A model generated the notes under the pieces. The model made no database searches. It saw only the letters and a program-made list of their open reading frames with translations, and had not been told where the DNA came from. Source: Candidatus Magasanikiibacteriota bacterium (GTDB lineage: Bacteria; Patescibacteriota; Patescibacteriia; Magasanikbacterales; UBA922). From it: a stretch of DNA of 64,000 bases. Numbering within the stretch: the stretch's first letter is position 1; each line of letters opens with the position of its first letter. The position numbers and the translations under genes were made by a program. Of this stretch, positions 2,357 to 51,385 are shown piece by piece. The stretch covers positions 4,416-68,415 of the forward strand of contig JABIBU010000027.1 of the NCBI GenBank assembly GCA_018652595.1. The letters are read 5' to 3'.

Positions 2357-2515
2357 GCTATACAGAAAACAGTTATCAAATAACAGATAACATTCTTTTT
2401 TACTTAAAAAATAGCTCTATTAAGCTACTTCATATTTTACTTGATTTTGACAATAATGGCAAGTGGTGCCCATTATCCTGCTAGCAGGCAGGTATGATTG
2501 ATAATAGCTATCTGA

Positions 2516-2782
2516 TTAGAGTAAATACCTAATTCTGTCGACTTCATCTTGGTCCAACATTTTATTAATTTCCACCACAATCTCTTCTTGGGCCTCACGT
2601 AGCTCTCGGGCAATCTCAGAATTGGCGCAGGTTACAGTAAGTGTTCTATTTTTCAAAAAAAGTGGATCAATCTTTTTTGAGGTCTCTCCCAAGACTGCTT
2701 CCAAGGATTTTTTGGCACACTCAAGCAGGTGCGCATCACCTTCTTTTTTGGGATCTTGTTGTGTTAGTGGTGAGAATACCAT
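2516..2782 (-). CDS. Small hypothetical protein, possibly DUF721/DciA-like
   Basis: 88 aa. The C-terminal LTVTCANSEIARELR resembles the DUF721 signature. Weak. Confidence 0.35.
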   Translation of the reverse strand: MVFSPLTQQDPKKEGDAHLLECAKKSLEAVLGETSKKIDPLFLKNRTLTVTCANSEIARELREAQEEIVVEINKMLDQDEVDRIRYLL

Positions 2783-2796
2783 AAATCAAATATAGT

Positions 2797-3312
2797 CTAT
2801 ATTTCGTACAAGTATATATTATCATCTTTTTGCAAATATTGCCAATCTGGAAAAGCAAAAGCATGGGAAATTATCCTACTACCAGGTTTCATCTCTTTTT
2901 TTATTTTCTTGGCCAGTTTTTCCATTCGGTGTGGTATGAAATAAATAAAGACCAGATCAAAGTCTGATAAATCAGTTTTCCACAGGCTTTCGTTTTTGAA
3001 TTTTATATTTTTTCTGCCTCTAGCTTTAATCTTACTAATCCAGTACAGAGATGGATTGATTTCTACTCCTATACTTTTTGCACAGTATTTTGCAGCTTCA
3101 ATTGTTATTCTTCCTTCGCCCGAACCAAGATCTACCACTTTGTCAGTTGGTTTTAGATTTGCCATTTTTATCATTTTTTTAAGCCTGGCTTTTTTGGTTG
3201 GGACGAATGGCGCTCCTGAGATAATCGCGTATAGTGAATACACGGAATATAAAAAAACTACTGCAATGAATATTGCAAAAATTGTTAGGAGTAACACTGT
3301 TGTAAGTGTCAT
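2797..3312 (-). CDS. Membrane-anchored class I SAM-dependent methyltransferase
   Basis: 171 aa. An N-terminal TM helix is followed by the VVDLGSGEGRITIEAA SAM-binding motif. Confidence 0.6.
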   Translation of the reverse strand: MTLTTVLLLTIFAIFIAVVFLYSVYSLYAIISGAPFVPTKKARLKKMIKMANLKPTDKVVDLGSGEGRITIEAAKYCAKSIGVEINPSLYWISKIKARGRKNIKFKNESLWKTDLSDFDLVFIYFIPHRMEKLAKKIKKEMKPGSRIISHAFAFPDWQYLQKDDNIYLYEI

Positions 3313-3317
3313 AAGTT

Positions 3318-6263
3318 TTACAGTTTTCTAAATTCACAAATTTCCTTATACTCACAATATTTACAAATAAATGGACCTGGAGTTGGTTTGAATTCGCCTT
3401 CACTAATCTTATTCATAGTATCTAATAATTTTTCTTGAAGTTTTTCAATGTCCTTGTCCTTGCCAATAAAAGATTGTCGTAGATCATCATTTACATAATA
3501 AAAAGTCAGCTGACTCACTTCGCCAATATTCTTGTATTCAGGTAGACTCTGAGCAGCTATCTGGTAGATCAAGAGTTGTTGTTTGTCGTCAGCTGATAAT
3601 TTTTCCTTGCCTTTGCCAGTTTTATAATCAATAATTTCCAAACTTCCGTCTTCAAGCTGATCTATTCTATCAATCCGACCATTTATCAAATACTCACCAA
3701 CTTTAATTTTGAAAAATCCTTCCAAACTAACTGGCACTGTCCAATTTCCTTCTTGAGAAGTATAAAATATCTTCAAAATTTCCTTTCCTTTTTCAAAATA
3801 CTGCTTGCGTTGTTTTTTGCTATTATACCAGTCTGCAATCCATTTTTCTTCATACATTTCTAGTAATTCTTCTATTTTTGGTACTTTGACACCACCTGAT
3901 ATGTCATGTCCTTTTTCTGCGGGCAAGCCAAACAATGAATCTTGCTTTACATTATTTAATTCTTGAACTCTTTCATAAAATTTTTGCAATGTGTTATGAA
4001 TTGTATTGCCAAAACTAAAGCTAGGACTACCTTTCATTGGAATTTTCAAGACATGAGATAATTTATATTGATATGGACAGCGATTGTAAGCATTTATTTG
4101 TGAGAAAGAAAATTTCTTTGGTGGTTCGTAGACTAGTTCGGCCTTGTCTTTTTTCTCACTAGTTTTTTTATTTAGAATTATTTTTTTGCTTGTTTTTTCT
4201 TTATTATCAATTGTTGTGCCTAGTTCTAGTTCGACTAAAAACCTACTTAGCTTTTTCTTTCTCATCCCACCATAATCTTCAGCGCTGGTTAAGAATAATT
4301 TTTGCTTAGCGCGAGTGCAGGCGACGTAAAAAAGTCGTCTTTCTTCTTGGTAGTGAAAGTCTCCTTCTGGTAAATTTTCTTTAATTAATTCACTTGGAAT
4401 TTCTATGCCACTACTTTTTTTTCTGGTTGGTAGTCTTTCTTCTACGCAATTTACCACAAAAACATATTTGTATTCTAGGCCTTTTGCGCTATGAACCGTA
4501 ATAATATTTACCGAGTCTGGCGTGTCTTCTATCTGTACCATTTTACCATTGTCACCCGACTCAATGATTTGATTGTAATGATCCACAAAGCCAGCAACAT
4601 GAGCGCCAGGGATTGCTTGCTCATATTTTTCGATTAGATTAAAAAATTGTTTTACATGATAAATTTGTCTGATTACCTCTCTATTACCAACCGTTTCTTC
4701 GTGAGCAAGATACTTCAAATACCCGCTGTCTTCCAAAAAATTGTATAACACTGCAGTTGGTTTTTCAAATCTAGCTCGTTTCATTCCATCGTGAACAAGG
4801 TCAATTAATTTTTGACAAATTTCAATTCCAACAGGTGAAATAAAAAATTCTCGGGCGCGTTTACAAGCTTCGTAATATGGGATTGATTTCTTTTTGGATC
4901 CACTAGTCAGCTTTTGTAAGTCATCCTCTTTAAAATTTAAAAATGGCATCCTGAGCAATCTATAAATCGCTTTATCATTATGAATATTCTCTACAATATT
5001 TAAAAAGTTTACCGAATCAAGTACTACAGGCTGGCGATACAGTCCAGATGAGGCAAGATACTCATACGGGATATTATAGGCCTCAAAAGCGTTTAAAAAC
5101 GGCTCTACGTGACTGTTGGCACGAACTAGTAAGGCAAAATCATCCAATGTGGCATCTTTGTCTTGCTCTTTTATTTCTGATATCTTTTTTACTACACCCT
5201 GCACTTCGTCATCTAAGCTTTCAAAATGTAAATGTTCGACTCCCCCGTCCTTTATACCACCTTTTGCTTTTAGTTTTTTATCTATTTTTAATTTTTTTTC
5301 TAGACGATCCGGATTATTGTGCTGTATAGATTTGTAAGCAAAATCAAGCACTTCTTTTGCAGATCTATAATTTTCTGTTAGTACAATTTCATCTGCATTT
5401 TTAAAATCTTCTTTAAAACGCATGATAATGGAGACATTACTTCCTCGAAAAGAATATATACTTTGATCATCGTCTCCGACTGCCGTAAGAGAAGTTTCTT
5501 TTCCTGTTAGAAGCTTCACTAGTTCATACTGTGCCCAATTAACATCTTGAAACTCATCTACCAAAATATATTTGAAACGTTCTTGTAATTTTTGCAAAAT
5601 ATTTGGTCGTTCACGCAGAAGTTTTACAGTATAAAAAATAAGACCACCAAAATCCATTGCATTGCTGTCCAGTAATATTTGTTCGTATTTGTGATATGCA
5701 TCAGCTACCTCTATTAGTCTGTTTTTTTCTTGAATCTCAGCTTCGTCTTTGTCCAGAATTATACCTTCAACGTGGTCCAAATATTCTTGAGTTGAAATAA
5801 GTTCATCTTTACACTTTGAAAAATGATCAAGTAGGGTGTGTATTTGCCCAGTCGGATTTCCCATTGGACGATAATAATCTAGATTGAAATCATAAATACT
5901 TTCCTTCATCATGAGCCAAGCATCGGTTTGGGATAATAATTTGAAATTTTTTGGTAAACCAATTTCTACTCCATATTCTTCGAGTAATCTCTGGCAAAAT
6001 GCATGAAAAGTTGAGATTTGTAAATCCACGTAACCTGTTTCAAGCATCTCATCCACGCGTTCCTCCATCTCCCCTGCTGCCTTGTCTGTAAAAGTCAAAG
6101 CCAAAATTTCCTCAGGTTTGGCGAAGTTTTTTTCTATTAAATAACTAATCTTCTTAGTAATAACAGTAGTTTTACCAGTTCCAGCACCAGCAACTATAAG
6201 AAGTGGACCTTTTGTGTGTTCTATGGCTTGTTTTTGAGCTGGGTTGAGTTTGTATTTTGGCAT
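3318..6263 (-). CDS. UvrD/PcrA-family SF1 helicase fused to a C-terminal PD-(D/E)XK (RecB/Cas4-like) nuclease with a Cys cluster (AddA-like single chain)
   Basis: Walker A GAGTGKTT after the conserved UvrD start MPKYKLNPAQKQAIEH (internal Met; the track ORF begins 23 codons earlier). The C-terminus carries RIDRID...DYKTGK and a CKYCEYKEIC 4-Cys motif. Confidence 0.75.
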   Translation of the reverse strand: MPKYKLNPAQKQAIEHTKGPLLIVAGAGTGKTTVITKKISYLIEKNFAKPEEILALTFTDKAAGEMEERVDEMLETGYVDLQISTFHAFCQRLLEEYGVEIGLPKNFKLLSQTDAWLMMKESIYDFNLDYYRPMGNPTGQIHTLLDHFSKCKDELISTQEYLDHVEGIILDKDEAEIQEKNRLIEVADAYHKYEQILLDSNAMDFGGLIFYTVKLLRERPNILQKLQERFKYILVDEFQDVNWAQYELVKLLTGKETSLTAVGDDDQSIYSFRGSNVSIIMRFKEDFKNADEIVLTENYRSAKEVLDFAYKSIQHNNPDRLEKKLKIDKKLKAKGGIKDGGVEHLHFESLDDEVQGVVKKISEIKEQDKDATLDDFALLVRANSHVEPFLNAFEAYNIPYEYLASSGLYRQPVVLDSVNFLNIVENIHNDKAIYRLLRMPFLNFKEDDLQKLTSGSKKKSIPYYEACKRAREFFISPVGIEICQKLIDLVHDGMKRARFEKPTAVLYNFLEDSGYLKYLAHEETVGNREVIRQIYHVKQFFNLIEKYEQAIPGAHVAGFVDHYNQIIESGDNGKMVQIEDTPDSVNIITVHSAKGLEYKYVFVVNCVEERLPTRKKSSGIEIPSELIKENLPEGDFHYQEERRLFYVACTRAKQKLFLTSAEDYGGMRKKKLSRFLVELELGTTIDNKEKTSKKIILNKKTSEKKDKAELVYEPPKKFSFSQINAYNRCPYQYKLSHVLKIPMKGSPSFSFGNTIHNTLQKFYERVQELNNVKQDSLFGLPAEKGHDISGGVKVPKIEELLEMYEEKWIADWYNSKKQRKQYFEKGKEILKIFYTSQEGNWTVPVSLEGFFKIKVGEYLINGRIDRIDQLEDGSLEIIDYKTGKGKEKLSADDKQQLLIYQIAAQSLPEYKNIGEVSQLTFYYVNDDLRQSFIGKDKDIEKLQEKLLDTMNKISEGEFKPTPGPFICKYCEYKEICEFRKL

Positions 6264-7659: not shown

Positions 7660-7683
7660 AAAAAATTACTTAAGGATTAAAGT

Positions 7684-7709
7684 AAAAATCCCCACAAAGG
7701 GGGCTTTTA
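7684..7709. terminator. Rho-independent terminator (GCCCCC-TTTGT-GGGGAT + T run on minus strand)
   Basis: Hairpin plus a T-tract immediately downstream of the 7718..7879 small ORF. Confidence 0.45.
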
Positions 7710-7717
7710 CTTAGATT

Positions 7718-7879
7718 TTATTCTTCTTTGTCGTCTATTTCCTCCTCTGGTAAGTCGCCATCATCATCAGCTGTGCCATAACAAGCACAACAATGACCGC
7801 AGCGGCCACAACGAGTGCAGACTTCGTCTTCTAGAAGTACCGCTTCGCATTCTGAACAATAAATCATTTCTGTTTCCAT
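7718..7879 (-). CDS. Small Cys-rich peptide (53 aa, 10 Cys) with acidic DLPEEEIDDKEE tail
   Basis: Manual translation: METEMIYCSECEAVLLEDEVCTRCGRCGHCCACYGTADDDGDLPEEEIDDKEE. Below the track length cutoff. Terminator downstream. Confidence 0.45.
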   Translation of the reverse strand: METEMIYCSECEAVLLEDEVCTRCGRCGHCCACYGTADDDGDLPEEEIDDKEE

Positions 7880-7891
7880 ATTAATAGATTA

Positions 7892-8029
7892 CTAGCAAGT
7901 TTGGCAGTCACACCCACTGCATCCTTCTGTTTTTTCTTCTTTACAGTCACAGCATGCTTTACAGCATGTGCCGCCATCACAGCATTTGTTTTCGTCGTTT
8001 ATCTCGACTTCGCATTTTGTACAATTCAT
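7892..8029 (-). CDS. Small Cys-rich peptide (45 aa, 14 Cys), metallothionein-like composition
   Basis: Manual translation: MNCTKCEVEINDENKCCDGGTCCKACCDCKEEKTEGCSGCDCQTC. Lies in tandem with 7718..7879. Confidence 0.4.
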   Translation of the reverse strand: MNCTKCEVEINDENKCCDGGTCCKACCDCKEEKTEGCSGCDCQTC

Positions 8030-8055
8030 AGAAATTGTTTATTAGTTCCAGCCAC

Positions 8056-8100
8056 AGACTGCCTGCCCGCCAAATGGTCGGGGTCAGCCTTGGGCTGAAA
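8056..8100. repeat. Short intergenic repeat, family 3 (GCCCGCCAAATGGTCGGGGTCAGCCTTGGGCTGAAA)
   Basis: Near-identical 16-mer CAGCCTTGGGCTGAAA and about 25 nt of flanking similarity recur at 46307..46343. Confidence 0.55.
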
Positions 8101-8131
8101 GAATGATAAATATATTATACATTAGTAAAAT

Positions 8132-8551
8132 TTAATATTCAAGTAATACCACTTCCTCACTATCTTTTATATCAGCTAATATTGATTTTACTTCTAAGCC
8201 AGGGAATTTTGCATTTATTACTTCTTTAGCTTTGTTCATGTCGCTATTATACTTTTGTTTTTCAGTTTCCAAATTTTCAAAAGCACTATGACCACCATAT
8301 GCACCACAATCTGTGTGATGTACTAGATATAGAGTTTTTATACCATGTAATTTTACTGAGAGTTCTATTTGATTTAAGATGAATTTGGCATCAGCAGAAT
8401 CAACATCTTCGACAATAGCTTTGCTAATTCCGGCAACTGATATAACATCACAGTCATCCATAATTCCCTTTTCTTCCATCCATTTGTCTATGGCAGAAGT
8501 TAGGCGGAAGTCAATACATTTAATAAGTGCGCTTGAGCATTGGTGGGACAT
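8132..8551 (-). CDS. Beta-carbonic-anhydrase-like small zinc protein (CxDxR ... HxxC motifs)
   Basis: 139 aa. CIDFR and VHHTDCGAYGG match the beta-CA zinc ligand pattern, but the protein is shorter than canonical beta-CA. Confidence 0.4.
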   Translation of the reverse strand: MSHQCSSALIKCIDFRLTSAIDKWMEEKGIMDDCDVISVAGISKAIVEDVDSADAKFILNQIELSVKLHGIKTLYLVHHTDCGAYGGHSAFENLETEKQKYNSDMNKAKEVINAKFPGLEVKSILADIKDSEEVVLLEY

Positions 8552-8714
8552 ATAATTAGTAGAAGGTTAAAAGTAGAAAGTATAAAGATATTTTATATGA
8601 AAAATATATTTTTGTCCAACAAAAAACTACCTGCCATCAGATAGTCTTTTGTAGTTGGGGCGAGAATTATGGTGCTCGCCCGTTTCACCTTTGTTCTCGG
8701 TTGCGAGGCAAGGA

Positions 8715-8945
8715 CTACCTGTCCATGCCGGCGAGCAAGGCCTCGGCGCCGTTGGTCGTGTCGGTCCCCATCAGCCATGCCAATGACTTGTCGGGATCCT
8801 GACTTGATTCGACCGTGTTGGCGATGGCGTTGAGTTCTGCTTCTCCCTCTGTTGCACTCACTCCCGGCTGCAGGAGAGATCCCACCGGTAACGCCCCCTT
8901 CCTCTCCAGACGCTCCAGTCCGCCCATCTCACGATCCTGTGGCAT
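8715..8945 (-). CDS. Hypothetical 76-aa protein in GC-rich island A (own SD AAGGAGGG)
   Basis: ATG preceded by AAGGAGGGTATC. GC about 58% against about 35% in the host. Upstream TTGTAT-16-TAATAT promoter-like sequence. Hairpin downstream. Confidence 0.45.
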   Translation of the reverse strand: MPQDREMGGLERLERKGALPVGSLLQPGVSATEGEAELNAIANTVESSQDPDKSLAWLMGTDTTNGAEALLAGMDR

Positions 8946-9002
8946 GATACCCTCCTTGGTGTTTGGATCATCAGTTTATATGTATATATTATCATATATA
9001 TA

Positions 9003-23268: not shown

Positions 23269-23352
23269 AAATAGAACACGAATTAAACTAATCTAACTAA
23301 TTATAACGAATTCGTTCAGATTAGTCCAATTCGTTAGATCTGTGTTCTATTT
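23269..23352. repeat. Family 1 repeat copy (AAATAGAACACGAATTAAACTAATCTAACTAATTATAACGAATTCGTT...GATCTGTGTTCTATTT)
   Basis: Its right arm overlaps the last 5 codons and the stop of the IscU-like gene. Confidence 0.65.
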
Positions 23353-23777
23353 TTATAATCTTTAATAGCTTTTTCCAAAGCTTGATCACCCAAAACCGAA
23401 CAATGAATCTTATTCGGTGGAAGCCCGCCCAATCTTTCCAAAATATCTTGCGGAGTAATTTTTAAAGCTTTTTCAATTGTCATACCACCATTTTCTAGTA
23501 CCATCTCAGACATCATAGAAGTAGAAGCGATAGCACTACCACAACCAAAAGTCTGCCATTTGCAATCTATAATTTTATCGTCCTCAACTTTTATCCATAC
23601 CACCATTTCATCACCACAAGCTGGACTACCTACTCTGCCAACACCATTGGCCTTAAACTTTTCTTCTTCGCCGTGTTTCAATAAATTTCTAGGATTAAAA
23701 AAATGATCTTTGACTATATCAGAGTAAAGCCAATCATTACCTTGTTTATCTTTTATTTTAGGACTTTGATTTGTCAT
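23334..23777 (-). CDS. IscU/NifU-type Fe-S cluster assembly scaffold
   Basis: 147 aa. GSPACGDEM…FGCGSAIASTS…HCSVLG conserved Cys triad. Confidence 0.8.
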   Translation of the reverse strand: MTNQSPKIKDKQGNDWLYSDIVKDHFFNPRNLLKHGEEEKFKANGVGRVGSPACGDEMVVWIKVEDDKIIDCKWQTFGCGSAIASTSMMSEMVLENGGMTIEKALKITPQDILERLGGLPPNKIHCSVLGDQALEKAIKDYKNRTQI

Positions 23778-24993
23778 ATTTTAAATTAACTGGTGAAATT
23801 TCACGCAACTTCTCTACAATTCCAGGTAGATACTTTATCACATAATCAACATCTTCCTTGGTATTGCGCTTACCTAATGTAAAACGCAGACTACCATGGG
23901 CATACTCATCTGGTAGACCGCAAGCAATTAGTACATGAGATGCGTCTAGAGATCCAGACGAACAAGCAGAACCAGTCGAGGTCACGATTCCGTATTCGTC
24001 CAAATATAAAAGCATTGCCTCACCTTCGATATCCAAGAAGGTTACATTTAAATTGTTTGGTAGACGAGTTTTTTCATCGTCTAGCTTAGTTCCGTTTAAT
24101 ACTATCTTATCAATATTTTTTTGAAGTTCTTCCCAAAAATACTGTCTGAGTTCTATTAGTCTTTTGTTTTCTTGTCCTTTATTTTCTTGAGATAGTTCCA
24201 AAGCCTTTGCTAATCCAATTATACCAGGGACATTCTCTGTTCCAGCTCGTAATCCCATCTCCTGTCCACCACCGTGGATTAAAGAATGCAAGTCTACTTT
24301 TCGTCTTTTGTATAAAACACCGATACCCTTTGGTCCGTAAATTTTACTACCATTTATAGTCAACAGGTCTACATGCAATTTTTCTACATCCAGATCTAAG
24401 ACACCGGCAGCCTGACAGGCATCACTGTGAAAATACGGATAGACAGTATTTTTAGTTTTGCGCCATTTCAAAATCTCTCTACCCACATCTGCAATAGGTA
24501 GTATAGTTCCAATTTCATTATTAGCGTACATGATTGAGACAAGAATTGTATCCGTGCGCAGAGCATTTTTAAATTCTTTTAAATCAATTTGCCCTTCTTT
24601 GTTTACATTTAGATAAGTAATTTCAAAACCATCTTTTTCTAAAAATTTACAAGTCTCAAGCACTGCTGGATGTTCTATCTTTGTTGTAATAATATGCTTA
24701 CCATTTCTTTTGTGTGGGTAAGCCATTCCTTGAATAGCCAAATTGTCTGATTCAGTTCCACCACTAGTAAAAATAATAGTATCTGCCTGTGCACCCAAAA
24801 TTTGGGCAATACTTTTACGAGCATTTGCGACATCTTTACTAACCTCTCTACCAATTCCATAAAGTCCAGAAGGATTGGCAAATCTTTCTGTATAATAAGG
24901 ATTCATCACGGCTTTTACTTCCTTGTCTACATAAGTAGTGGCTGCATGATCCAAATATACTAGTTTTTTTTCTTTTGGTTTGTTTGGAAACAT
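23758..24993 (-). CDS. Cysteine desulfurase (NifS/IscS class V aminotransferase)
   Basis: 411 aa. PLP lysine motif region and SGSACSSGS active-site loop. Confidence 0.85.
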   Translation of the reverse strand: MFPNKPKEKKLVYLDHAATTYVDKEVKAVMNPYYTERFANPSGLYGIGREVSKDVANARKSIAQILGAQADTIIFTSGGTESDNLAIQGMAYPHKRNGKHIITTKIEHPAVLETCKFLEKDGFEITYLNVNKEGQIDLKEFKNALRTDTILVSIMYANNEIGTILPIADVGREILKWRKTKNTVYPYFHSDACQAAGVLDLDVEKLHVDLLTINGSKIYGPKGIGVLYKRRKVDLHSLIHGGGQEMGLRAGTENVPGIIGLAKALELSQENKGQENKRLIELRQYFWEELQKNIDKIVLNGTKLDDEKTRLPNNLNVTFLDIEGEAMLLYLDEYGIVTSTGSACSSGSLDASHVLIACGLPDEYAHGSLRFTLGKRNTKEDVDYVIKYLPGIVEKLREISPVNLKYDKSKS

Positions 24994-24996
24994 ATA

Positions 24997-25395
24997 TTAT
25001 ACAAAATCAGCGAGCTTAGTCTTTTCTAAATAGTCTGTAAGATGAGTGTTTATTTTTTTGAAAACTTTTCTTGATTCACATTTTTTTTCACGCTTACAGC
25101 CACACTTACCACGCAGGCAGTGAATAATTGCATAATCCCCTTCCAACGCCTCGATAATTTCCTTTAGTGTAATTTTCAAAGGATTTTTCTTTAACATATA
25201 ACCACCCTGGGCGCCTTTGGTCGCCTCTATGATATTTGCATCTTTTAATTTTTTTGCGATTCTTTGCAAAAACAAAAAAGATATCCCAGTGTCTTTGGAA
25301 AAAGTTCGCAAGCTTAGTAGGTCTCCTCTACTTCCTTTTGCGAGAGTTATTACTAGCTGTAGACCATAGTCTACCTCTTTGGTAAATTGAAGCAT
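24997..25395 (-). CDS. Rrf2-family (IscR-like) transcriptional regulator
   Basis: 132 aa. N-terminal wHTH. C-terminal Cys cluster CLRGKCGCKREKKC. Confidence 0.75.
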   Translation of the reverse strand: MLQFTKEVDYGLQLVITLAKGSRGDLLSLRTFSKDTGISFLFLQRIAKKLKDANIIEATKGAQGGYMLKKNPLKITLKEIIEALEGDYAIIHCLRGKCGCKREKKCESRKVFKKINTHLTDYLEKTKLADFV

Positions 25396-25494
25396 ATTTT
25401 TATAATTAATACTTGGTTAGTATGATATAATAAATCAAAACAAAAGTCAAGTAAAAATCAGCCTGAGGCTGATTTTATAGTATCTAATATATAT

Positions 25495-26082
25495 TTACAA
25501 TGGTAAAGTGAGATTAATATTACCACCACCAACTTCTCCATTACTACCGACTATTTCTTTTGGTAGATCAAAATTAACACCTATTGGCTGAAGATCTCCA
25601 GTCAAAGTCTGGATATATAACATCTTATTTTGCTTGCCATACTCATAAACTTCCTTTGTAACTTTTACATCTTGTTCGCAATATCTTTTTACATCTTCTT
25701 TCCTACCTTCTTCCCACCATTTCATAGCTTCCAATCCGTCAGCGCTTTTGGAAACATTTTCAAGAGTCGCTTTGGCCACATCGTCCAATTTATAGCGCTT
25801 TCCATTGATTTCTTTTATTACTTTTAGCAGATCTAGATGAGGAAAGGCCATTAAGTCGCCAGTATAGTATTTATTCAAAATGGGCATATCAAAATGTTCA
25901 CTATTGTATCCTATAGTACGTTCTGCTTTTTCCAAAACCGGCCACAGATCTCCGAGTTCATGTTCTTCAAAAGAAGTATACTTGTCAGTCTCATACTCAT
26001 AAATAGAGACAACTGTAATTTTTAATTCATCAAATTTTTTTATATCACCGATTGTTTCAATGTCGAGAACAACTTCTTTCAT
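25495..26082 (-). CDS. RNase H-like fold 3'-5' exonuclease-like protein
   Basis: 195 aa. N-terminal VVLDIETIG DEDD-like motif. Confidence 0.4.
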   Translation of the reverse strand: MKEVVLDIETIGDIKKFDELKITVVSIYEYETDKYTSFEEHELGDLWPVLEKAERTIGYNSEHFDMPILNKYYTGDLMAFPHLDLLKVIKEINGKRYKLDDVAKATLENVSKSADGLEAMKWWEEGRKEDVKRYCEQDVKVTKEVYEYGKQNKMLYIQTLTGDLQPIGVNFDLPKEIVGSNGEVGGGNINLTLPL

Positions 26083-26245
26083 ATTTTTACACGGATTACG
26101 CGGAATAAAAGGAATGCACGGAATATTACCAATCTATTTACTGCATAAATTAATTGTTAAGGTCATTATTGTAACATAGTTTTTATTTAAATACAAAAAA
26201 CACGGTGGATTCCGTGTTTTCCTTAATTTCTGTTTTTTCCGTGTA

Positions 26246-26473
26246 TTATTTCAAAAGTGTCTCGATTTTCGCTTTATCAAAACCTACAATAATCTCACCG
26301 TCGATATCAATAACAGGCACGCCCATCTGGCCGGACTTATCCATCATTTCCTTTGCTTTGTCTTGGTCTTCGGCAACATTAATTTCAGTATACTCCACAC
26401 CTTTTTCCTTAAAAAATTCTTTTGCCTGCAGGCAATAAGGACAAGTTGGGGTTGAATAGATTGTTACTTTCAT
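26246..26473 (-). CDS. Glutaredoxin/NrdH-like redoxin
   Basis: 75 aa. TCPYC active site. The C-terminus is an alpha/beta Grx fold. Confidence 0.75.
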   Translation of the reverse strand: MKVTIYSTPTCPYCLQAKEFFKEKGVEYTEINVAEDQDKAKEMMDKSGQMGVPVIDIDGEIIVGFDKAKIETLLK

Positions 26474-26547
26474 ATTTTTATTTATTAGATTAATTAACTA
26501 CCATTTTAGTATAACACTATTTAACTTAATCCAACCTGTGGATAAAA

Positions 26548-26898
26548 TTACATCTTTCTAAACTTTACAGAAAACAAAGGCTCGTATTCATTGTCATACT
26601 CATCTCTTATCTCAATGCTTTCACCCTTCATTACTTTATTAAGTGCTATATCATTCAACATTTCTTGATCTGACTCAATATCGATTTTTAAATCCTCCAA
26701 CTTAATAAACTCACCAGAAAACTGTTCCTTTGTTGTCTGTTCAATCTGCTTTTTCTTCTCACGCATTGTTCTTAATTTTTCTGTAAGTTCTTGATATTCT
26801 AAAGATGAAGCTAGAGCATCTTTGTAAGCTGTCCTAATGTCTTTTTGTTTTTTCTTGGCAACCTGGATTCTATTGAAGATTTCCTGTATATTTTGCAT
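26548..26898 (-). CDS. Hypothetical coiled-coil protein
   Basis: 116 aa, charged, with heptad character. Confidence 0.35.
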   Translation of the reverse strand: MQNIQEIFNRIQVAKKKQKDIRTAYKDALASSLEYQELTEKLRTMREKKKQIEQTTKEQFSGEFIKLEDLKIDIESDQEMLNDIALNKVMKGESIEIRDEYDNEYEPLFSVKFRKM

Positions 26899-26941
26899 AG
26901 TATTCTGTATTTAGTTAGTGTGAAACATTATAACACAGATC

Positions 26942-26978
26942 AAAAAACCGGTCACTGTTGATAGTTTCCGGTTTTCTT
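26942..26978. terminator. Bidirectional terminator hairpin AAAAAACCGG-loop-CCGGTTTTC
   Basis: 8-bp stem with A-run and T-run flanks. Confidence 0.5.
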
Positions 26979-26982
26979 ATTT

Positions 26983-27144
26983 CTATTCCTCTTTTGTCTC
27001 TTCTTCAGAAGGAAGATCGTGTTTTCCATCTTCACAATTACACTCTTTTAGATCATGTTCGTGTAGTGGGCAGGTCTCGGCTTGGCAAGTGCCAGGTGTC
27101 TCAGAAACACCCCCGCAACCACCAGTACATACATAGTGTGTCAT
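26983..27144 (-). CDS. Small Cys-rich peptide (53 aa) with acidic DLPSEEETKEE tail; paralog of 7718..7879
   Basis: Manual translation: MTHYVCTGGCGGVSETPGTCQAETCPLHEHDLKECNCEDGKHDLPSEEETKEE. Not in the track (<60 aa). Confidence 0.45.
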   Translation of the reverse strand: MTHYVCTGGCGGVSETPGTCQAETCPLHEHDLKECNCEDGKHDLPSEEETKEE

Positions 27145-27253
27145 ATGTTCTATAATTAAGATTTATATTTCAAACCCAACCAGACTAAGGTTGTATTTTT
27201 ACTCGGCTTATGCTAGTATACCATATCCAAATAAAGATATAAACAAAACTAAT

Positions 27254-28369
27254 ATGTCGTCAAGAGTTATAATAGTCCACTACGATGAAATTGCCATCAA
27301 AGGTAAAAATCGTCCAAAATTTGAGGGTCAGCTAGTGGATAATATCAGAGAGAAAATAAAAATCGCAAAACTAAAAGGCGAAGTACAAAAAAAGTATGGT
27401 CGTCTTGATATTGTAATTCCAGAGTTAGATCAAAAAGAAGATTGGATTAGGCTTCTCCAGACAACTTTTGGAATTGCTAATTTTAGTTTTGCTGTGCTTG
27501 TTGAACAAGATTTAGAGGTAATCAAAAACCAATGCCTAGAAGAAATTAGTAAACAAGAGTTTGAGACTTTTCGCATTACCACACAAAGAAGTAATAAAAA
27601 CTTTCCGATCGGCTCCATGGAGGTTAGCAAGGAAGTTGGTGCCTATGTTTTTGAAAATTTGAAAAAGAAAGTTGATTTGTTCAATCCTGACACTACTTGT
27701 TTTATTAGTATTGTAGATAATTTTGCACTCATATACTCAGAGAAAATCCAAGGCCCAGGAGGACTACCTGTAGGAATCAATGGCAAGGCTGTAGTACTGC
27801 TCTCTGGTGGAATAGATTCGCCAGTAGCTGCTTGGTATGCAATGAAACGAGGACTACGAATTAGTTTTGTGCATTTTCATTCGGCACCATATACTTCTCA
27901 ATCTTCTATCGATAAAGTGGAAGAGCTGGCAGAGATATTAAGAACTTACTCTCCAAATGCAAAGCTCACTTCTATTGCTTTTGGTGATATTCAAAAAAAA
28001 TTAAAATTGCAAATACCAGAGAAATACTTAATTATTTTTTATAGGCGCTATATGTTACGTCTAGCAGAAAAACAAGCAAGAGAATCCGGCGCCAAAGTTT
28101 TGATAACTGGCGAAGCACTAGGCCAAGTAGCTTCGCAGACTTTGGAAAACATGATAGTAGTGGAACAAGCTATTGAGATGATGATCCTTAGACCTCTAAT
28201 AGGTTTTGATAAAAAAGAGATAATAGTTAAAGCCAAGGAAATTGGAACTTTTGAGACTTCTATTCTTCCTCATGACGACTGTTGCACGCTCTTCATGCCA
28301 AAATCACCCGAGACTAGAGCAAAACTGGCAGATATTTTGGAGATAGAAGCTAAGATTGATCTGGAGTAA
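27254..28369 (+). CDS. thiI: tRNA 4-thiouridine(8) synthase ThiI (THUMP + PP-loop)
   Basis: PP-loop VLLSGGIDSPVAAW. Start taken at MSSRVIIVHYDEIAIKGKNR. The track ORF extends 21 codons upstream. Confidence 0.85.
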   Translation: MSSRVIIVHYDEIAIKGKNRPKFEGQLVDNIREKIKIAKLKGEVQKKYGRLDIVIPELDQKEDWIRLLQTTFGIANFSFAVLVEQDLEVIKNQCLEEISKQEFETFRITTQRSNKNFPIGSMEVSKEVGAYVFENLKKKVDLFNPDTTCFISIVDNFALIYSEKIQGPGGLPVGINGKAVVLLSGGIDSPVAAWYAMKRGLRISFVHFHSAPYTSQSSIDKVEELAEILRTYSPNAKLTSIAFGDIQKKLKLQIPEKYLIIFYRRYMLRLAEKQARESGAKVLITGEALGQVASQTLENMIVVEQAIEMMILRPLIGFDKKEIIVKAKEIGTFETSILPHDDCCTLFMPKSPETRAKLADILEIEAKIDLE

Positions 28370-28435
28370 CGCTTTAAAAAAGAACTAAAAGAAACACTCC
28401 GCCTATTTGGCGGAGTGTTTTTTCTTATTTATTCT

Positions 28436-29152
28436 TTATTTCATCAAACCCTCTTCAAAATCTACCAAATAAAAATTCCCATCATTTAAAACTGCGGCCT
28501 CAATTTTTTTATCAATTCCAAATATAATACTGAGACCTACAATAATAAATAATATCGCCAAAGTTTTTTTGAACCAACCCTTTGGATCTGCCAGACCACT
28601 CAATCGCTTCGTTACTTTTTGTCCCAGATATGCTATTAAGAGCAATATTGAAGAAAGTCCTGAAGCATAGATTAACAAATAAATAATTCCTACAAAATAA
28701 TTTTGAGGTAGTACAGTTGCCAGAATAAGAAAGTAAGTTGGTGAGCAACTAGAAAACACAGGGCCGAGCGCTGCACCCATCAAGATGTCTCCCCACAAAG
28801 TTTTTTTCTGACTAGACTCATAAAGAAATTTGTCAGATTTGGCAGAGAATTTTAGTTTATTACTAAGACTTCCCCAGAGATTCGGGAAAAGTGCAGTAAA
28901 TCCAAAAAATAAAATAATAAATCCAGAAACCAAGCTCCATGCCTTTGGTGGAATATCAATTAGCAGTGTGCTAGCTTTCAAAAGCAGAGTGAATAGAATA
29001 ATTGAGACAGCTAGCGAACCAACTATAATAAAGGGTCTGCGCTTATTACTATCTTCTACAGATTTGCCAATAATAATAGGCAAAATAGGCAGAATACAAG
29101 GAGCGAGCACTGTAAGTACTCCGGCTACAAAGCTGACTAGAGCTAATGTCAT
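28436..29152 (-). CDS. ccdA: CcdA/DsbD-family thiol:disulfide electron transporter
   Basis: 238 aa, 6 TM helices. APCILP and later Cys in TM4. Confidence 0.7.
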   Translation of the reverse strand: MTLALVSFVAGVLTVLAPCILPILPIIIGKSVEDSNKRRPFIIVGSLAVSIILFTLLLKASTLLIDIPPKAWSLVSGFIILFFGFTALFPNLWGSLSNKLKFSAKSDKFLYESSQKKTLWGDILMGAALGPVFSSCSPTYFLILATVLPQNYFVGIIYLLIYASGLSSILLLIAYLGQKVTKRLSGLADPKGWFKKTLAILFIIVGLSIIFGIDKKIEAAVLNDGNFYLVDFEEGLMK

Positions 29153-29186
29153 AGGCTTATATGGTTAAATTTTGGTAATAGATTTG

Positions 29187-29990
29187 TTATTTTAATTTGT
29201 CAAGAATACTTTGCAAATCACTACCTCCAGTCCATTTTGTAATTTGGTTTCCTTTTTCATCTACTTGAACAAGGGTGTGTTGATATGTAATACTGTATTT
29301 TTTACGAAGATCATTTGCATCATCATAATTTACTTGTAAAATATTCAAGTCAGTTGGAATATCATCTAAAGTTTTGTTCAAATTACTTTCCAAACGACGA
29401 CAAGTTGGGCACCAAGCAGCGTGAAAAAATAAAACTACATTATTTTCTTTTGCTAACGCTAACTTTTCTGGTGAGTAAACTTCATAAGTGCCAGGTAAAT
29501 TTTGTAATATTTCTTCTACTACTATTGTTTCTTCTACTACAGGGACTTCTTCGAGTACTTTTACTTCAGCAACCTGTTCATCAATATCTTTTACAATTAA
29601 TTTTCCAACCATACCTTGGGCGCGATGATTGCCAACCGAGCAATAGAATTCAAACTCTCCTGCTTTGTTAGCTACGAAAGTAACACTGGTTTTGTTACCT
29701 GTATTTATCTTTTTTGTTTTTACATTCAATTTGTCAATTACAAAGTCATGGAAACCTTGTGAATTATAGAAATCTATTGTGACAGTCTCTCCCTTATTTA
29801 TCGTGATTACGTTTGGGGTGAAAGAATAGTTTTTTCCTTCTACCTCTATACGAAGACCGTCTATATTTTGTACATCACCGGCTTCTGTATTTGGATTAAT
29901 TGGAAGGCTTGCTTCTTTGGAAACTTTGTTACAACCTCCACCGATCATAATCAGTGACATTGCAAACACAAAAAATATTTTGTATTTCAT
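29187..29990 (-). CDS. Lipoprotein fusion: cupredoxin (type 1 blue copper) domain + thioredoxin-like domain (WCPTC)
   Basis: Lipobox MIGGGCNK. Cupredoxin ligand set …H…CSVGNHRAQGM. C-terminal HAAWCPTCRR thioredoxin motif. The track ORF starts 25 codons earlier at 30065. Confidence 0.6.
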   Translation of the reverse strand: MKYKIFFVFAMSLIMIGGGCNKVSKEASLPINPNTEAGDVQNIDGLRIEVEGKNYSFTPNVITINKGETVTIDFYNSQGFHDFVIDKLNVKTKKINTGNKTSVTFVANKAGEFEFYCSVGNHRAQGMVGKLIVKDIDEQVAEVKVLEEVPVVEETIVVEEILQNLPGTYEVYSPEKLALAKENNVVLFFHAAWCPTCRRLESNLNKTLDDIPTDLNILQVNYDDANDLRKKYSITYQHTLVQVDEKGNQITKWTGGSDLQSILDKLK

Positions 29991-30006
29991 ATTTTTATTT
30001 ATTAAA

Positions 30007-31029
30007 TTAATCCCAAAGCAACCCATCATCCCCGTGATGAATGCTCCAAGAAAAATACATTTCATAATATCCCGGAACGGGTTTGTTGTTTAATTTTGCA
30101 AAAACTTCTCCATCAATCTTCTCTACTTCTAGGTTATCACTATTTATTTTTTTGGTTAACTTCTTGCCTTCTTCTACATTTTTATTTGCCACAGCAACAG
30201 ACTTATCTCCTACTGGGATTACAAACATAATTTCTTTTGGTGGAAATTTATCATCAAAATCAGAGGTTGGGAAATAAATATCATCGTTATCGTCATAGCC
30301 TCCATAAGGATAGAAAGAATAATTTCGTAGATGACCAGTCTTTTTGCTTAGAACTTTTGCATTTGGATATTTTTCTTTTACAGTAGAGAAAGGAATCAAT
30401 TGCATTGGTAAAATTTCCAACTTTGTCTCAGTATAATACCCTACCACAGCCTCTCCTCGAGCCTGTGACCATAGACTTTCAGTCTTTTTGTCATACATGA
30501 GTAGATTTGATTCGAACAGTCTTCCACTAACACCAAATTCTAAAATAGCACCATCAATATTCCTATTATACACAATCCCCGAGCCACACAATGGGCAAAA
30601 AGTCGCTGTAAAATAATTATCTCCTATATTGTCATTTACAATTTCATGCCAAACAAGAATATTATATGGATAATAGCGAACTTCACCATCAAAACTAACC
30701 AAAATACCCAAAGATTCTTCTGGAAAGTCTGCTGACGCAATATTAGTAAATTTTGGATTGGTGAGTGCAGGTATTCCATCTTTCCCCGGGCCTCCAGACA
30801 AGATTTGATTAGTGTCTATTATGGTTTTGTTAAAATCTGTTTTCAAATCAGACAACCTTATATCTGGATCCATATTCTCTAGTTTCTTGGGATTTCCTTC
30901 CTCATCCATAAAACTACTAATCATATTATTTATAGATTGCTGTTTTGTATTTTTAAGATTGACGTAGACCACTCCAGCTATAATTAATAAAATAATTATT
31001 ATAGCCAGTAAAATAATATTTTTTTTCAT
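30007..31029 (-). CDS. DUF3179-family protein with N-terminal membrane anchor
   Basis: 340 aa. DGIPAL and CPLCG motifs characteristic of DUF3179. Confidence 0.6.
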   Translation of the reverse strand: MKKNIILLAIIIILLIIAGVVYVNLKNTKQQSINNMISSFMDEEGNPKKLENMDPDIRLSDLKTDFNKTIIDTNQILSGGPGKDGIPALTNPKFTNIASADFPEESLGILVSFDGEVRYYPYNILVWHEIVNDNIGDNYFTATFCPLCGSGIVYNRNIDGAILEFGVSGRLFESNLLMYDKKTESLWSQARGEAVVGYYTETKLEILPMQLIPFSTVKEKYPNAKVLSKKTGHLRNYSFYPYGGYDDNDDIYFPTSDFDDKFPPKEIMFVIPVGDKSVAVANKNVEEGKKLTKKINSDNLEVEKIDGEVFAKLNNKPVPGYYEMYFSWSIHHGDDGLLWD

Positions 31030-46288: not shown

Positions 46289-46380
46289 ATGGAAAGGCTT
46301 GAAAGGCTTGTCCGCCAGAGGACGGATCAGCCTTGGGCTGAAAATGCTTATCCACCCAAGGCGGATCAGTCTTTCAGCTG
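46289..46380. repeat. Family 3 repeats upstream of typA (GAAAGGCTTGAAAGGCTT; GGATCAGCCTTGGGCTGAAA; GGATCAGTCTTTCAGCTGAA)
   Basis: The 16-mer CAGCCTTGGGCTGAAA is identical to 8085..8100. Confidence 0.55.
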
Positions 46381-50999: not shown

Positions 51000-51385
51000 T
51001 CGACGGTAGCTCAGTGGTAGAGCAACTGGCTGTGACTTTAATAGCAGCCCTTGGTAGTAATACTGAGGTGAAAAACAAGGTGAACTGCAGGAACCCTTAA
51101 TCTGTTGCAAAACAGAAAAGGCGATCTGCAGCCAAGTCTTGACCCCTAATCCATATCCGGATTAATATTACGGACTTACTAAGACTGTAGTAGGGAGTCA
51201 AGAAAGGTTCAGAGACTATCCTTAACGGGAGTAGGATTCGATTTAATCGGATTCGAAGCGCCTTGCACCCCAACGCTCTTGATTTAGTCAAGTTTTTGGC
51301 GAGGGTGATAATATAGTCCACTCTTTTAGGAAACTAGAAGGCAAGTGTAACCAGTGGGTCGCCGGTTCGAGCCCGGCCCGTCGAG
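51000..51385 (+). tRNA. tRNA-Asn(GUU) interrupted by a group I intron in the anticodon loop (exons 51000..51033 and 51348..51385)
   Basis: Acceptor TCGACGG/CCGTCGA, D arm GCTC-AGTGGTA-GAGC, anticodon stem ACTGG/CCAGT, spliced loop CUGUUAA, variable loop GGGTC, T arm GCCGG-TTCGAGC-CCGGC, discriminator G. Confidence 0.75.
51034..51347 (+). other. Group I self-splicing intron (314 nt, no ORF) inserted between anticodon positions 35 and 36
   Basis: P1: exon GGCUGU pairs with the intron IGS GCAGCC (U.G at the splice site). P4 elements: CUGCAGG / UCUGCAG. R element GUUCAGAGACUA. S element AAUAUAGUCC. Terminal omega-G. Confidence 0.75.

Follow-up and report, generated by a model that had tools for sequence, protein, structure and literature searches.

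Small cysteine-rich proteins in Magasanikbacteria: a predicted P2-P1 operon and a separate P3 family with putative metal-binding sites

A 64,000-nucleotide stretch of the genome of a marine Candidatus Magasanikiibacteriota bacterium (contig JABIBU010000027.1 of assembly GCA_018652595.1, positions 4,416 to 68,415), referred to here as the window, carries three short minus-strand open reading frames (ORFs) for cysteine-rich proteins, P1, P2 and P3. According to both the ORF listing and direct reading, P1 occupies 7718..7879 (53 amino acids, METEMIYCSECEAVLLEDEVCTRCGRCGHCCACYGTADDDGDLPEEEIDDKEE), P2 7892..8029 (45 amino acids, MNCTKCEVEINDENKCCDGGTCCKACCDCKEEKTEGCSGCDCQTC) and P3 26983..27144 (53 amino acids, MTHYVCTGGCGGVSETPGTCQAETCPLHEHDLKECNCEDGKHDLPSEEETKEE). 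A preliminary description of this DNA gave the same coordinates, lengths, sequences and tails exactly; its figure of 8-14 cysteines for all three overstates P3, the counts being 8 of 53 residues in P1 (15%), 13 of 45 in P2 (29%) and 6 of 53 in P3 (11%). P2 contains no F, Y, W or H, and its cysteines are arranged as CxxC, three CC and several CxC. Aromatic residues and histidines are found in the other two proteins: P1 has Y7, an invariant Y34 and a hydrophobic AVLL segment, and P3 has Y4 and three histidines.

The proteins had also been described as unannotated, which is true of P2 but not of P1 and P3. The latter are identical to GenBank entries MBT4121203.1 (HOA57_05040) and MBT4121229.1 (HOA57_04870), respectively, each a "hypothetical protein" of a marine Candidatus Magasanikbacteria metagenome-assembled genome. 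The exact P2 sequence is absent from all gene calls (~15 billion proteins searched), and the gap that holds it contains no called gene in six assemblies of the same organism. P2 is a genuine gene that has never been annotated in this organism. The assemblies in which the P1 locus was read include GCA_018657365.1, those from Saanich Inlet and others. The start codon of P1 is ambiguous (7865..7879): the protein has either 53 amino acids or, from Met5 at 7867, 49, and the shorter form (MIYCSEC…) is the one called in other assemblies. In the most distant P1 homologues, and likewise in P2, the start lies two residues ahead of the first cysteine.

Homologues of the three ORFs were found in related genomes, in which the frames are kept and substitutions are biased towards third codon positions rather than spread independently of frame, bearing out the coding status that the preliminary description had proposed. 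Pairwise differences from relatives at codon positions 1, 2 and 3 amount to 2-13, 3-10 and 18-26 for P1 and to 4-12, 4-9 and 19-23 for P2. The pairwise non-synonymous rate (dN) of P1 is 0.07-0.26 and its synonymous rate (dS) 0.8-2.0, giving a dN/dS of ~0.1; for P2, dN is 0.13-0.27 with dS saturated, and for P3, compared with the gene of a sister genome, dN is 0.076, dS 0.91 and dN/dS 0.08. A dN/dS of ~0.1 points to purifying selection on all three ORFs and, together with the third-position-biased divergence, indicates that P1, P2 and P3 are real conserved genes.

P2 and P1 are separated by a spacer of 12 nucleotides. Upstream of P2 on the minus strand lies a sigma-70-like promoter, TTGAAT-17-TATAAT (8114..8142), with 10 of 12 consensus matches, the -35 hexamer of which overlaps the final codons of a Pro_CA_2 gene. 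About 33 nucleotides around the -10 box are near-identical in lineages L009 and L011 despite saturated synonymous sites. In L007, where the pair stands in a different context, it is preceded by a terminator and then by its own perfect TTGACA-17-TATAAT. The P2-P1 pair ends, also on the minus strand, with an intrinsic-terminator-like hairpin and U-run (7680..7712; -14.6 kcal/mol, z -3.6), the same palindrome being reported by the scan on the plus strand. At the corresponding place in L007, L009, L011, L017 and L018 there is a hairpin that differs in sequence and has a T-run behind it. A terminator-like hairpin with a U-run likewise follows P3 (26942..26977, minus strand; -14.5 kcal/mol, z -4.7). 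The view that each of the three genes has an adjacent terminator is therefore correct for P1 and P3 only, as P2 has none of its own and P1 starts 12 nucleotides on. The lack of a terminator after P2, the promoter-like site upstream and the terminator after P1 lead us to predict that P2-P1 forms a self-contained bicistronic operon.

The tandem arrangement, with a P2 homologue directly upstream of P1, is found in the window and in eight other lineages (L007/L008, L009/L010, L011/L012/L021, L017, L018/L024, L020, L022 and L023), and a solitary, shorter P1-like gene is present in three more distant lineages (L019, L025, identical to P0041, and L026). The P1/P2 family is restricted to Magasanikbacteria. 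An exhaustive HMMER search with the P1 profile added two further true small homologues. The other matches were eukaryote-like CCHC zinc-knuckle repeats aligned to a CxRCGRxGH stretch, which were rejected as analogous rather than homologous because H29 is not conserved in the P1 family. Two of the contigs deserve comment in their own right. The L018/L024 contig CAYXGV010000004.1, labelled "uncultured Gammaproteobacteria", has 35% GC and a Magasanikbacteria-type P2-P1 pair after V-type ATPase genes, and is probably mis-binned or mislabelled. In L019 (JAAZJX010000069.1, ~2431..5868), the contig forms a near-perfect palindrome in which a plus-strand Na+/H+ exchanger gene and P1-like gene are mirrored on the minus strand around position 4150; a chimeric assembly is a more probable cause than a true inverted duplication.

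Across the 12 lineages all eight cysteines of P1 are invariant, in the pattern C8xxC11-x9-C21xxC24xxC27xxC30C31xC33. The AVxLEDE segment (A13, V14, L16, E17, D18 and E19) and Y34 are also invariant, and the protein ends in an acidic tail with a clade-specific [DNV]LP[EKD] motif. In P2, a six-lineage alignment lists A6 and nine cysteines (C3, C6, C17, C23, C26, C27, C29, C37 and C42) as invariant. When all nine lineages are considered, the first seven cysteines, forming an N-terminal core, remain invariant and the C-terminal cysteine cluster is variable, as is typical of metallothioneins. P1 and P2 share a common core, CxxC-x9/10-C…C-x2-CC-x-C, which aligns in register in profile-profile comparison (hhalign, E 2.4e-4 to 8.8e-4); the score was exceeded in 3.3% of column-shuffled P2 profiles (p = 0.033). 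The P2 homologue of L018 has an intermediate CxxCxCCxxCCxC spacing. It is plausible that P1 and P2 are tandem paralogues.

The three proteins had initially been regarded as a single family, an idea that does not survive for P3: hhalign gives a probability below 1% for P3 with either P1 or P2, leaving only the P1-P2 similarity as suggestive. P3 represents a separate Cys6/His2 mini-protein family with a variable acidic tail, unrelated to P1/P2 and more widely distributed within the candidate phyla radiation (CPR). Homologues from CPR bacteria number at least 31 at E <= 3e-8, the two that are named coming from Magasanikbacteria and Uhrbacteria. H3, C6, T7, G8, C10, G12, S14, C20, C25, C35, C37, D39 and H42 are invariant among 32 sequences. 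A 301-amino-acid "member" of the P3 cluster proved to be a release-factor fragment and was discarded as a clustering artefact.

The feature that had suggested a common origin was the DLPxEE…KEE tail of P1 and P3. The resemblance is real, here and in one sister genome. Of the 238 six-frame ORFs in the window, P1 and P3 alone carry [DENV]LPx0-1EE, and the alignment of the two tails is better than that of composition-preserving shuffles (p = 0.008). In the sister genome the P3 homologue (ELPTKEE) shares an 82-kb contig with a P2-P1 pair, the P1 of which has DLPEEE at its end. The tails are not paralogous, however. They differ at third codon positions throughout and so show no sign of recent DNA transfer. 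Within the P1 family the LP motif is present in 6 of the 12 lineages, the remainder, including the more distant homologues, having an acidic tail only; within the P3 family it is limited to the sister genome and P0009 (LPPEE), elsewhere replaced by an H-x-E-[AV]-[FML] consensus. The occurrence of LPx[ED]E in P3-family tails has a p of 0.004. The tail of the P3 AlphaFold2 model has a predicted local distance difference test (pLDDT) score below 50. We regard the DLPxEE…KEE tail as a clade-specific trait of acidic, disordered C-termini, possibly a short linear motif; it gives no evidence of shared ancestry. The export role once suggested for it finds no echo in the sequences, in which no signal-peptide-like hydrophobic stretch was seen on reading.

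What these proteins may do must be approached from their ligand patterns. Neither P1, P2 and P3 nor the whole family alignments gave a significant match in Pfam, NCBIfam or PHROGs, and searches of PDB sequences with the three profiles returned nothing below E 0.05. Nothing relevant came from literature searches on metallothioneins or small cysteine-rich proteins of CPR/Patescibacteria. Metallothioneins are described as small Cys-rich proteins, and P2, with 29% Cys and neither aromatics nor His, fits this description (PMC10612145). At masses below 10 kDa, both P2 (29%) and P1 (15%) fall within the ~15-30% Cys of metallothioneins. Few or no aromatic residues combined with CC, CxC and CxxC motifs are found in P2 but not in P1 or P3. 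Neither P2 nor any of its six aligned homologues matched a Pfam model, PF02069 (SmtA/BmtA) included, at E up to 10. By composition P2 is metallothionein-like, yet it does not belong to the SmtA/BmtA family.

The N-terminal half of P1, for its part, looks zinc-ribbon-like. The AlphaFold2 model contains a beta-hairpin (residues 5-8 and 13-16) around the first CxxC, and its Foldseek neighbours, all with E >1, include zinc ribbons. Weak PDB neighbours in sequence or fold comprise rubredoxin, an HVO_2753-like small zinc-finger protein, RPA12, S27e, L40e and HypA. One of nine P1-family members matches Zn_ribbon_3 (E 1.1e-3) and another Zn_ribbon_9 (E 0.029), both below threshold. The likeness to metallothioneins and zinc ribbons noted in the preliminary description is borne out by the composition of P2 and by the appearance of the N-terminal half of P1, respectively.

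Taken together, it is moderately probable that the locus comprises two separate gene sets for cytoplasmic metal-binding (metal-thiolate) mini-proteins. Several observations weigh against this interpretation. We infer metal binding from ligand patterns, and none of the homologues is of known function. In work on the Haloferax C(P)XCG mini-proteins, motifs of this type proved compatible with zinc, with a different metal or with no metal at all, a distinction that AlphaFold2 is unable to make (PMC11241148). The AlphaFold2 model of P1 has a low pLDDT (59), and that of P3 (mean pLDDT 73) has no Foldseek match in the PDB. None of the genes has a metal-sensing regulator or a metal transporter as a consistent neighbour. 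The paralogy of P1 and P2 is weak, with p values of 0.06-0.09 in single-sequence shuffles. Finally, the invariant AVxLEDE of P1 points to a specific interaction surface, for which a plain metal sponge would have no need.

If metal binding is nevertheless accepted, the following scheme can be proposed. The P2-P1 operon would be vertically inherited within Magasanikbacteria. P2 would use its 13 thiolates to enclose a small cluster of Zn(II), Cd(II) or Cu(I) ions. P1 probably goes back to an old tandem duplication shared with P2 and may have turned into a more rigid, fold-constrained domain, in which the two CxxC knuckles would form a zinc-ribbon-type site and the CxxCCxC run a second site, followed by the disordered acidic tail. 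The pair could then serve as a buffer, a store or a means of transfer for thiophilic metals in a metal-limited, anaerobic marine host with a reducing cytoplasm. P3, a stand-alone Cys6His2 (plus Asp) mini-protein, would have two tetrahedral metal sites. For P1, P2 and P3 alike, which metal would be bound and what the proteins would do in the cell are proposed here on the same footing as metal binding itself.

It is also conceivable, although unlikely, that P1 and perhaps P3 are regulatory zinc-finger micro-proteins. A single structural metal site would then serve as scaffold for binding a partner protein or nucleic acid, with the [DE]LPxEE tail as an interaction motif and P2 as a co-factor or metal donor. 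Such a role would account for the invariance of residues in P1 that are not ligands, AVxLEDE and Y34, and archaeal small zinc-finger proteins with biological roles are known (PMC10716476, PMC11241148). It would also suit the tails, whose similarity is above composition-only expectation and whose LP motif, found in half of the P1 lineages, is carried by P3 in the same two sister genomes. That motif is nevertheless missing from the other half of the P1 lineages and from about 30 of the 31 P3 homologues, and no conserved candidate partner or neighbour was found at the P3 loci of four distant genomes or in the flanks of related P2-P1 loci. Moreover, 13 cysteines in the 45 residues of P2 far exceed the needs of a scaffold.

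Iron-sulfur or Fe(Cys)4 redox mini-proteins of the rubredoxin, desulforedoxin or ferredoxin kind, acting as electron carriers or as Fe-S scaffolds or carriers, offer another explanation, which we consider quite unlikely. The C21xxC24xxC27xxxC31 series of P1 resembles the ferredoxin CxxCxxCxxxC, and weak PDB matches to 4Fe-4S subunits were obtained (E 0.3-3); the CxxC…CC spacing presumably recalls that of desulforedoxin. P3 lies between an Rrf2-IscS-IscU cluster and ThiI, and its adjacency to ThiI is kept in the sister genome. On the other hand, no significant match to Fer4, rubredoxin or Desulfoferrod_N was found. P1 lacks the proline of the CxxCxxCxxxCP motif by which, with a Fer4 profile match, 4Fe-4S ferredoxins are recognised. 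P3 homologues in other phyla have unrelated neighbours, and an abundance of CC and CxC such as that of P2 is what metallothioneins, rather than Fe-S proteins, typically show.

The occurrence of the [DE]LPxEE motif on both P1 and P3 allows a more elaborate proposal, in which this motif, specific to one Magasanikbacteria clade, directs the two unrelated proteins to a common partner (a metal-transfer protein, a chaperone or a proteolytic adaptor, for instance) and the P2-P1 pair acts as a donor/carrier system for metal hand-off rather than as a passive buffer. We regard this as distinctly improbable, and we know of no two-component donor/carrier metal hand-off system described in CPR bacteria.

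The preliminary description also likened the three proteins to precursors of ribosomally synthesised and post-translationally modified peptides. Precursors of this class (of sactipeptide, ranthipeptide or SCIFF type), with their maturation enzyme at another genomic site, would be in keeping with the small size, many cysteines and Asp/Glu-rich tails, and in L011, L017 and L018 an ATP-binding cassette (ABC) exporter gene (ABC_membrane plus ABC_tran, 587 amino acids) follows the pair at a distance of one to three genes. We nevertheless consider this reading very improbable. No SCIFF or other precursor model of NCBIfam matches, and no maturase is encoded in the 64-kb window, whose sole radical SAM gene is RlmN (TIGR00048, 1.5e-107) at a distance of 53 kb. 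Neither maturases nor proteases nor C39 domains were seen in the flanks of related loci, and in the window the pair has no ABC gene in its vicinity. Finally, such precursors usually combine a conserved leader with a variable core, whereas here a conserved cysteine region precedes a variable tail.

The P2-P1 pair lies directly downstream of a gene for a 139-amino-acid Pro_CA_2 putative carbonic anhydrase (PF20393, E 6.6e-20) and is followed by a DUF5661 gene. Its description as a tandem beside a carbonic-anhydrase-like gene is thus accurate as to position; as to association, the adjacency is shared synteny and provides no independent link. In four lineages the pair comes after a Na+/H+ exchanger and Pro_CA_2, in two after V-type ATPase subunit genes (the D gene). 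A functional connection with Pro_CA_2 or the Na+/H+ exchanger was rejected, as the synteny is that of one clade and a V-ATPase operon takes its place in two lineages. Between the exchanger and Pro_CA_2 genes of the window there is an island of ~60% GC (8640..8950) in a genome of ~35% GC. It contains a minus-strand ORF of 76 amino acids (8715..8945) with a strong Shine-Dalgarno sequence (AAGGAGG, 6 nucleotides, ATG) and a terminator hairpin. No Pfam or Rfam match was found for the region. In L011 only ~100 nucleotides separate the same two genes, and the island looks like a small foreign insertion. Around P3, the region 23334..30065 is rich in sulfur and redox genes: it encodes NifU_N/IscU, a cysteine desulfurase, the Rrf2 regulator, ThiI, a DsbD-like membrane protein and, at 29187..30065, a cupredoxin-thioredoxin fusion protein of unusual architecture.

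The 5' leader of P2 contains a GC-rich hairpin (8046..8100, minus strand; -28.9 kcal/mol, z -3.7) that includes the palindrome TCAGCCCAAGGCTGA. This element is present in L009 and L017, whereas L011 and L007 lack it. A conserved riboswitch was considered and rejected, as the hairpin has no Rfam match and two lineages, L011 and L007, do without such a leader. Exactly three copies of the palindrome TCAGCC-N3-GGCTGA occur in the window (8084..8098, 25458..25472 and 46311..46341), the chance expectation for exact matches, estimated from base composition, being ~6e-4. Ahead of the Rrf2 operon, the copy at 25458 serves as a terminator hairpin, complete with T-run, and that at 46327 is located in the BipA/TypA leader, within a 31-nucleotide element (TCAGCCCAAGGCTGATCCGTCCTCTGGCGGA) nearly equal to the P2 leader of L017. 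This suggests that the P2 leader hairpin belongs to a family of dispersed GC-rich hairpins in Magasanikbacteria, similar to repetitive extragenic palindromic sequences. The possibility that the palindrome is an operator for Rrf2 or a metal repressor, tying the operon to the isc cluster, was rejected, since the other two copies are a terminator hairpin and part of the BipA leader, as in a dispersed hairpin repeat. Elsewhere in the window (51000..51378, plus strand), a tRNA gene carries a group I intron (~51024..51340; Rfam RF00028, 78 bits) within its anticodon region. tRNA-like 5' and 3' halves flank the intron, the exact splice sites being uncertain, and ARAGORN finds no tRNA in the window because the intron interrupts the gene.

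P1/P2 and P3 represent uncharacterised small-protein families rich in metal ligands, in hosts with tiny genomes where each retained gene is likely to matter, and P2 provides a concrete example of the blind spot of gene callers for ORFs of fewer than 50 amino acids. If metal binding were confirmed, these proteins would reveal how uncultured bacteria of sulfidic zones cope with a scarcity of thiophilic metals, and would extend the known metallothionein-like sequences beyond relatives of SmtA. Proteins of this kind are familiar and the locus demonstrates no new mechanism, so that its value lies mainly in annotation and as a lead for biochemistry.

Among known systems, SCIFF and ranthipeptide precursors are similar in having ~45-55 amino acids with six or more cysteines, but P1-P3 match no precursor model and have no radical SAM/SPASM maturase nearby, and the host here is a CPR bacterium, not Clostridium. 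With rubredoxin, desulforedoxin and 4Fe-4S ferredoxin P1 shares CxxC knuckle pairs and a CxxCxxCxxxC-like run, although the similarity is non-significant and no Pfam match exists. P1 resembles Zn_ribbon_3 and the Haloferax volcanii C(P)XCG proteins HVO_2753 and HVO_0758 in being shorter than 70 amino acids with two CxxC knuckles around a predicted beta-hairpin. The match to an HVO_2753-like chain is weak (E 1.8), as is that of the single P1 member to Zn_ribbon_3, and P1 differs from these proteins in four extra invariant cysteines (CxxCCxC), an acidic tail and scores below all family thresholds. Its knuckles, CSEC and CTRC, are not of the CPxCG form. P2 has no sequence similarity to any described metallothionein family in Pfam, NCBIfam or the PDB, is encoded in a fixed pair with a second Cys-rich protein, and has no SmtB/ArsR-type or Zur-type regulator in view next to it. 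It nevertheless resembles metallothioneins such as SmtA/BmtA (PF02069), the Pseudomonas PflQ2 protein and mycobacterial MymT in its 45 amino acids, its 29% Cys arranged as CxxC, CC and CxC, and its freedom from aromatics, His and a signal peptide. Moreover, the P1/P2 core, like SmtA, opens with a zinc-finger-like CxxC hairpin.

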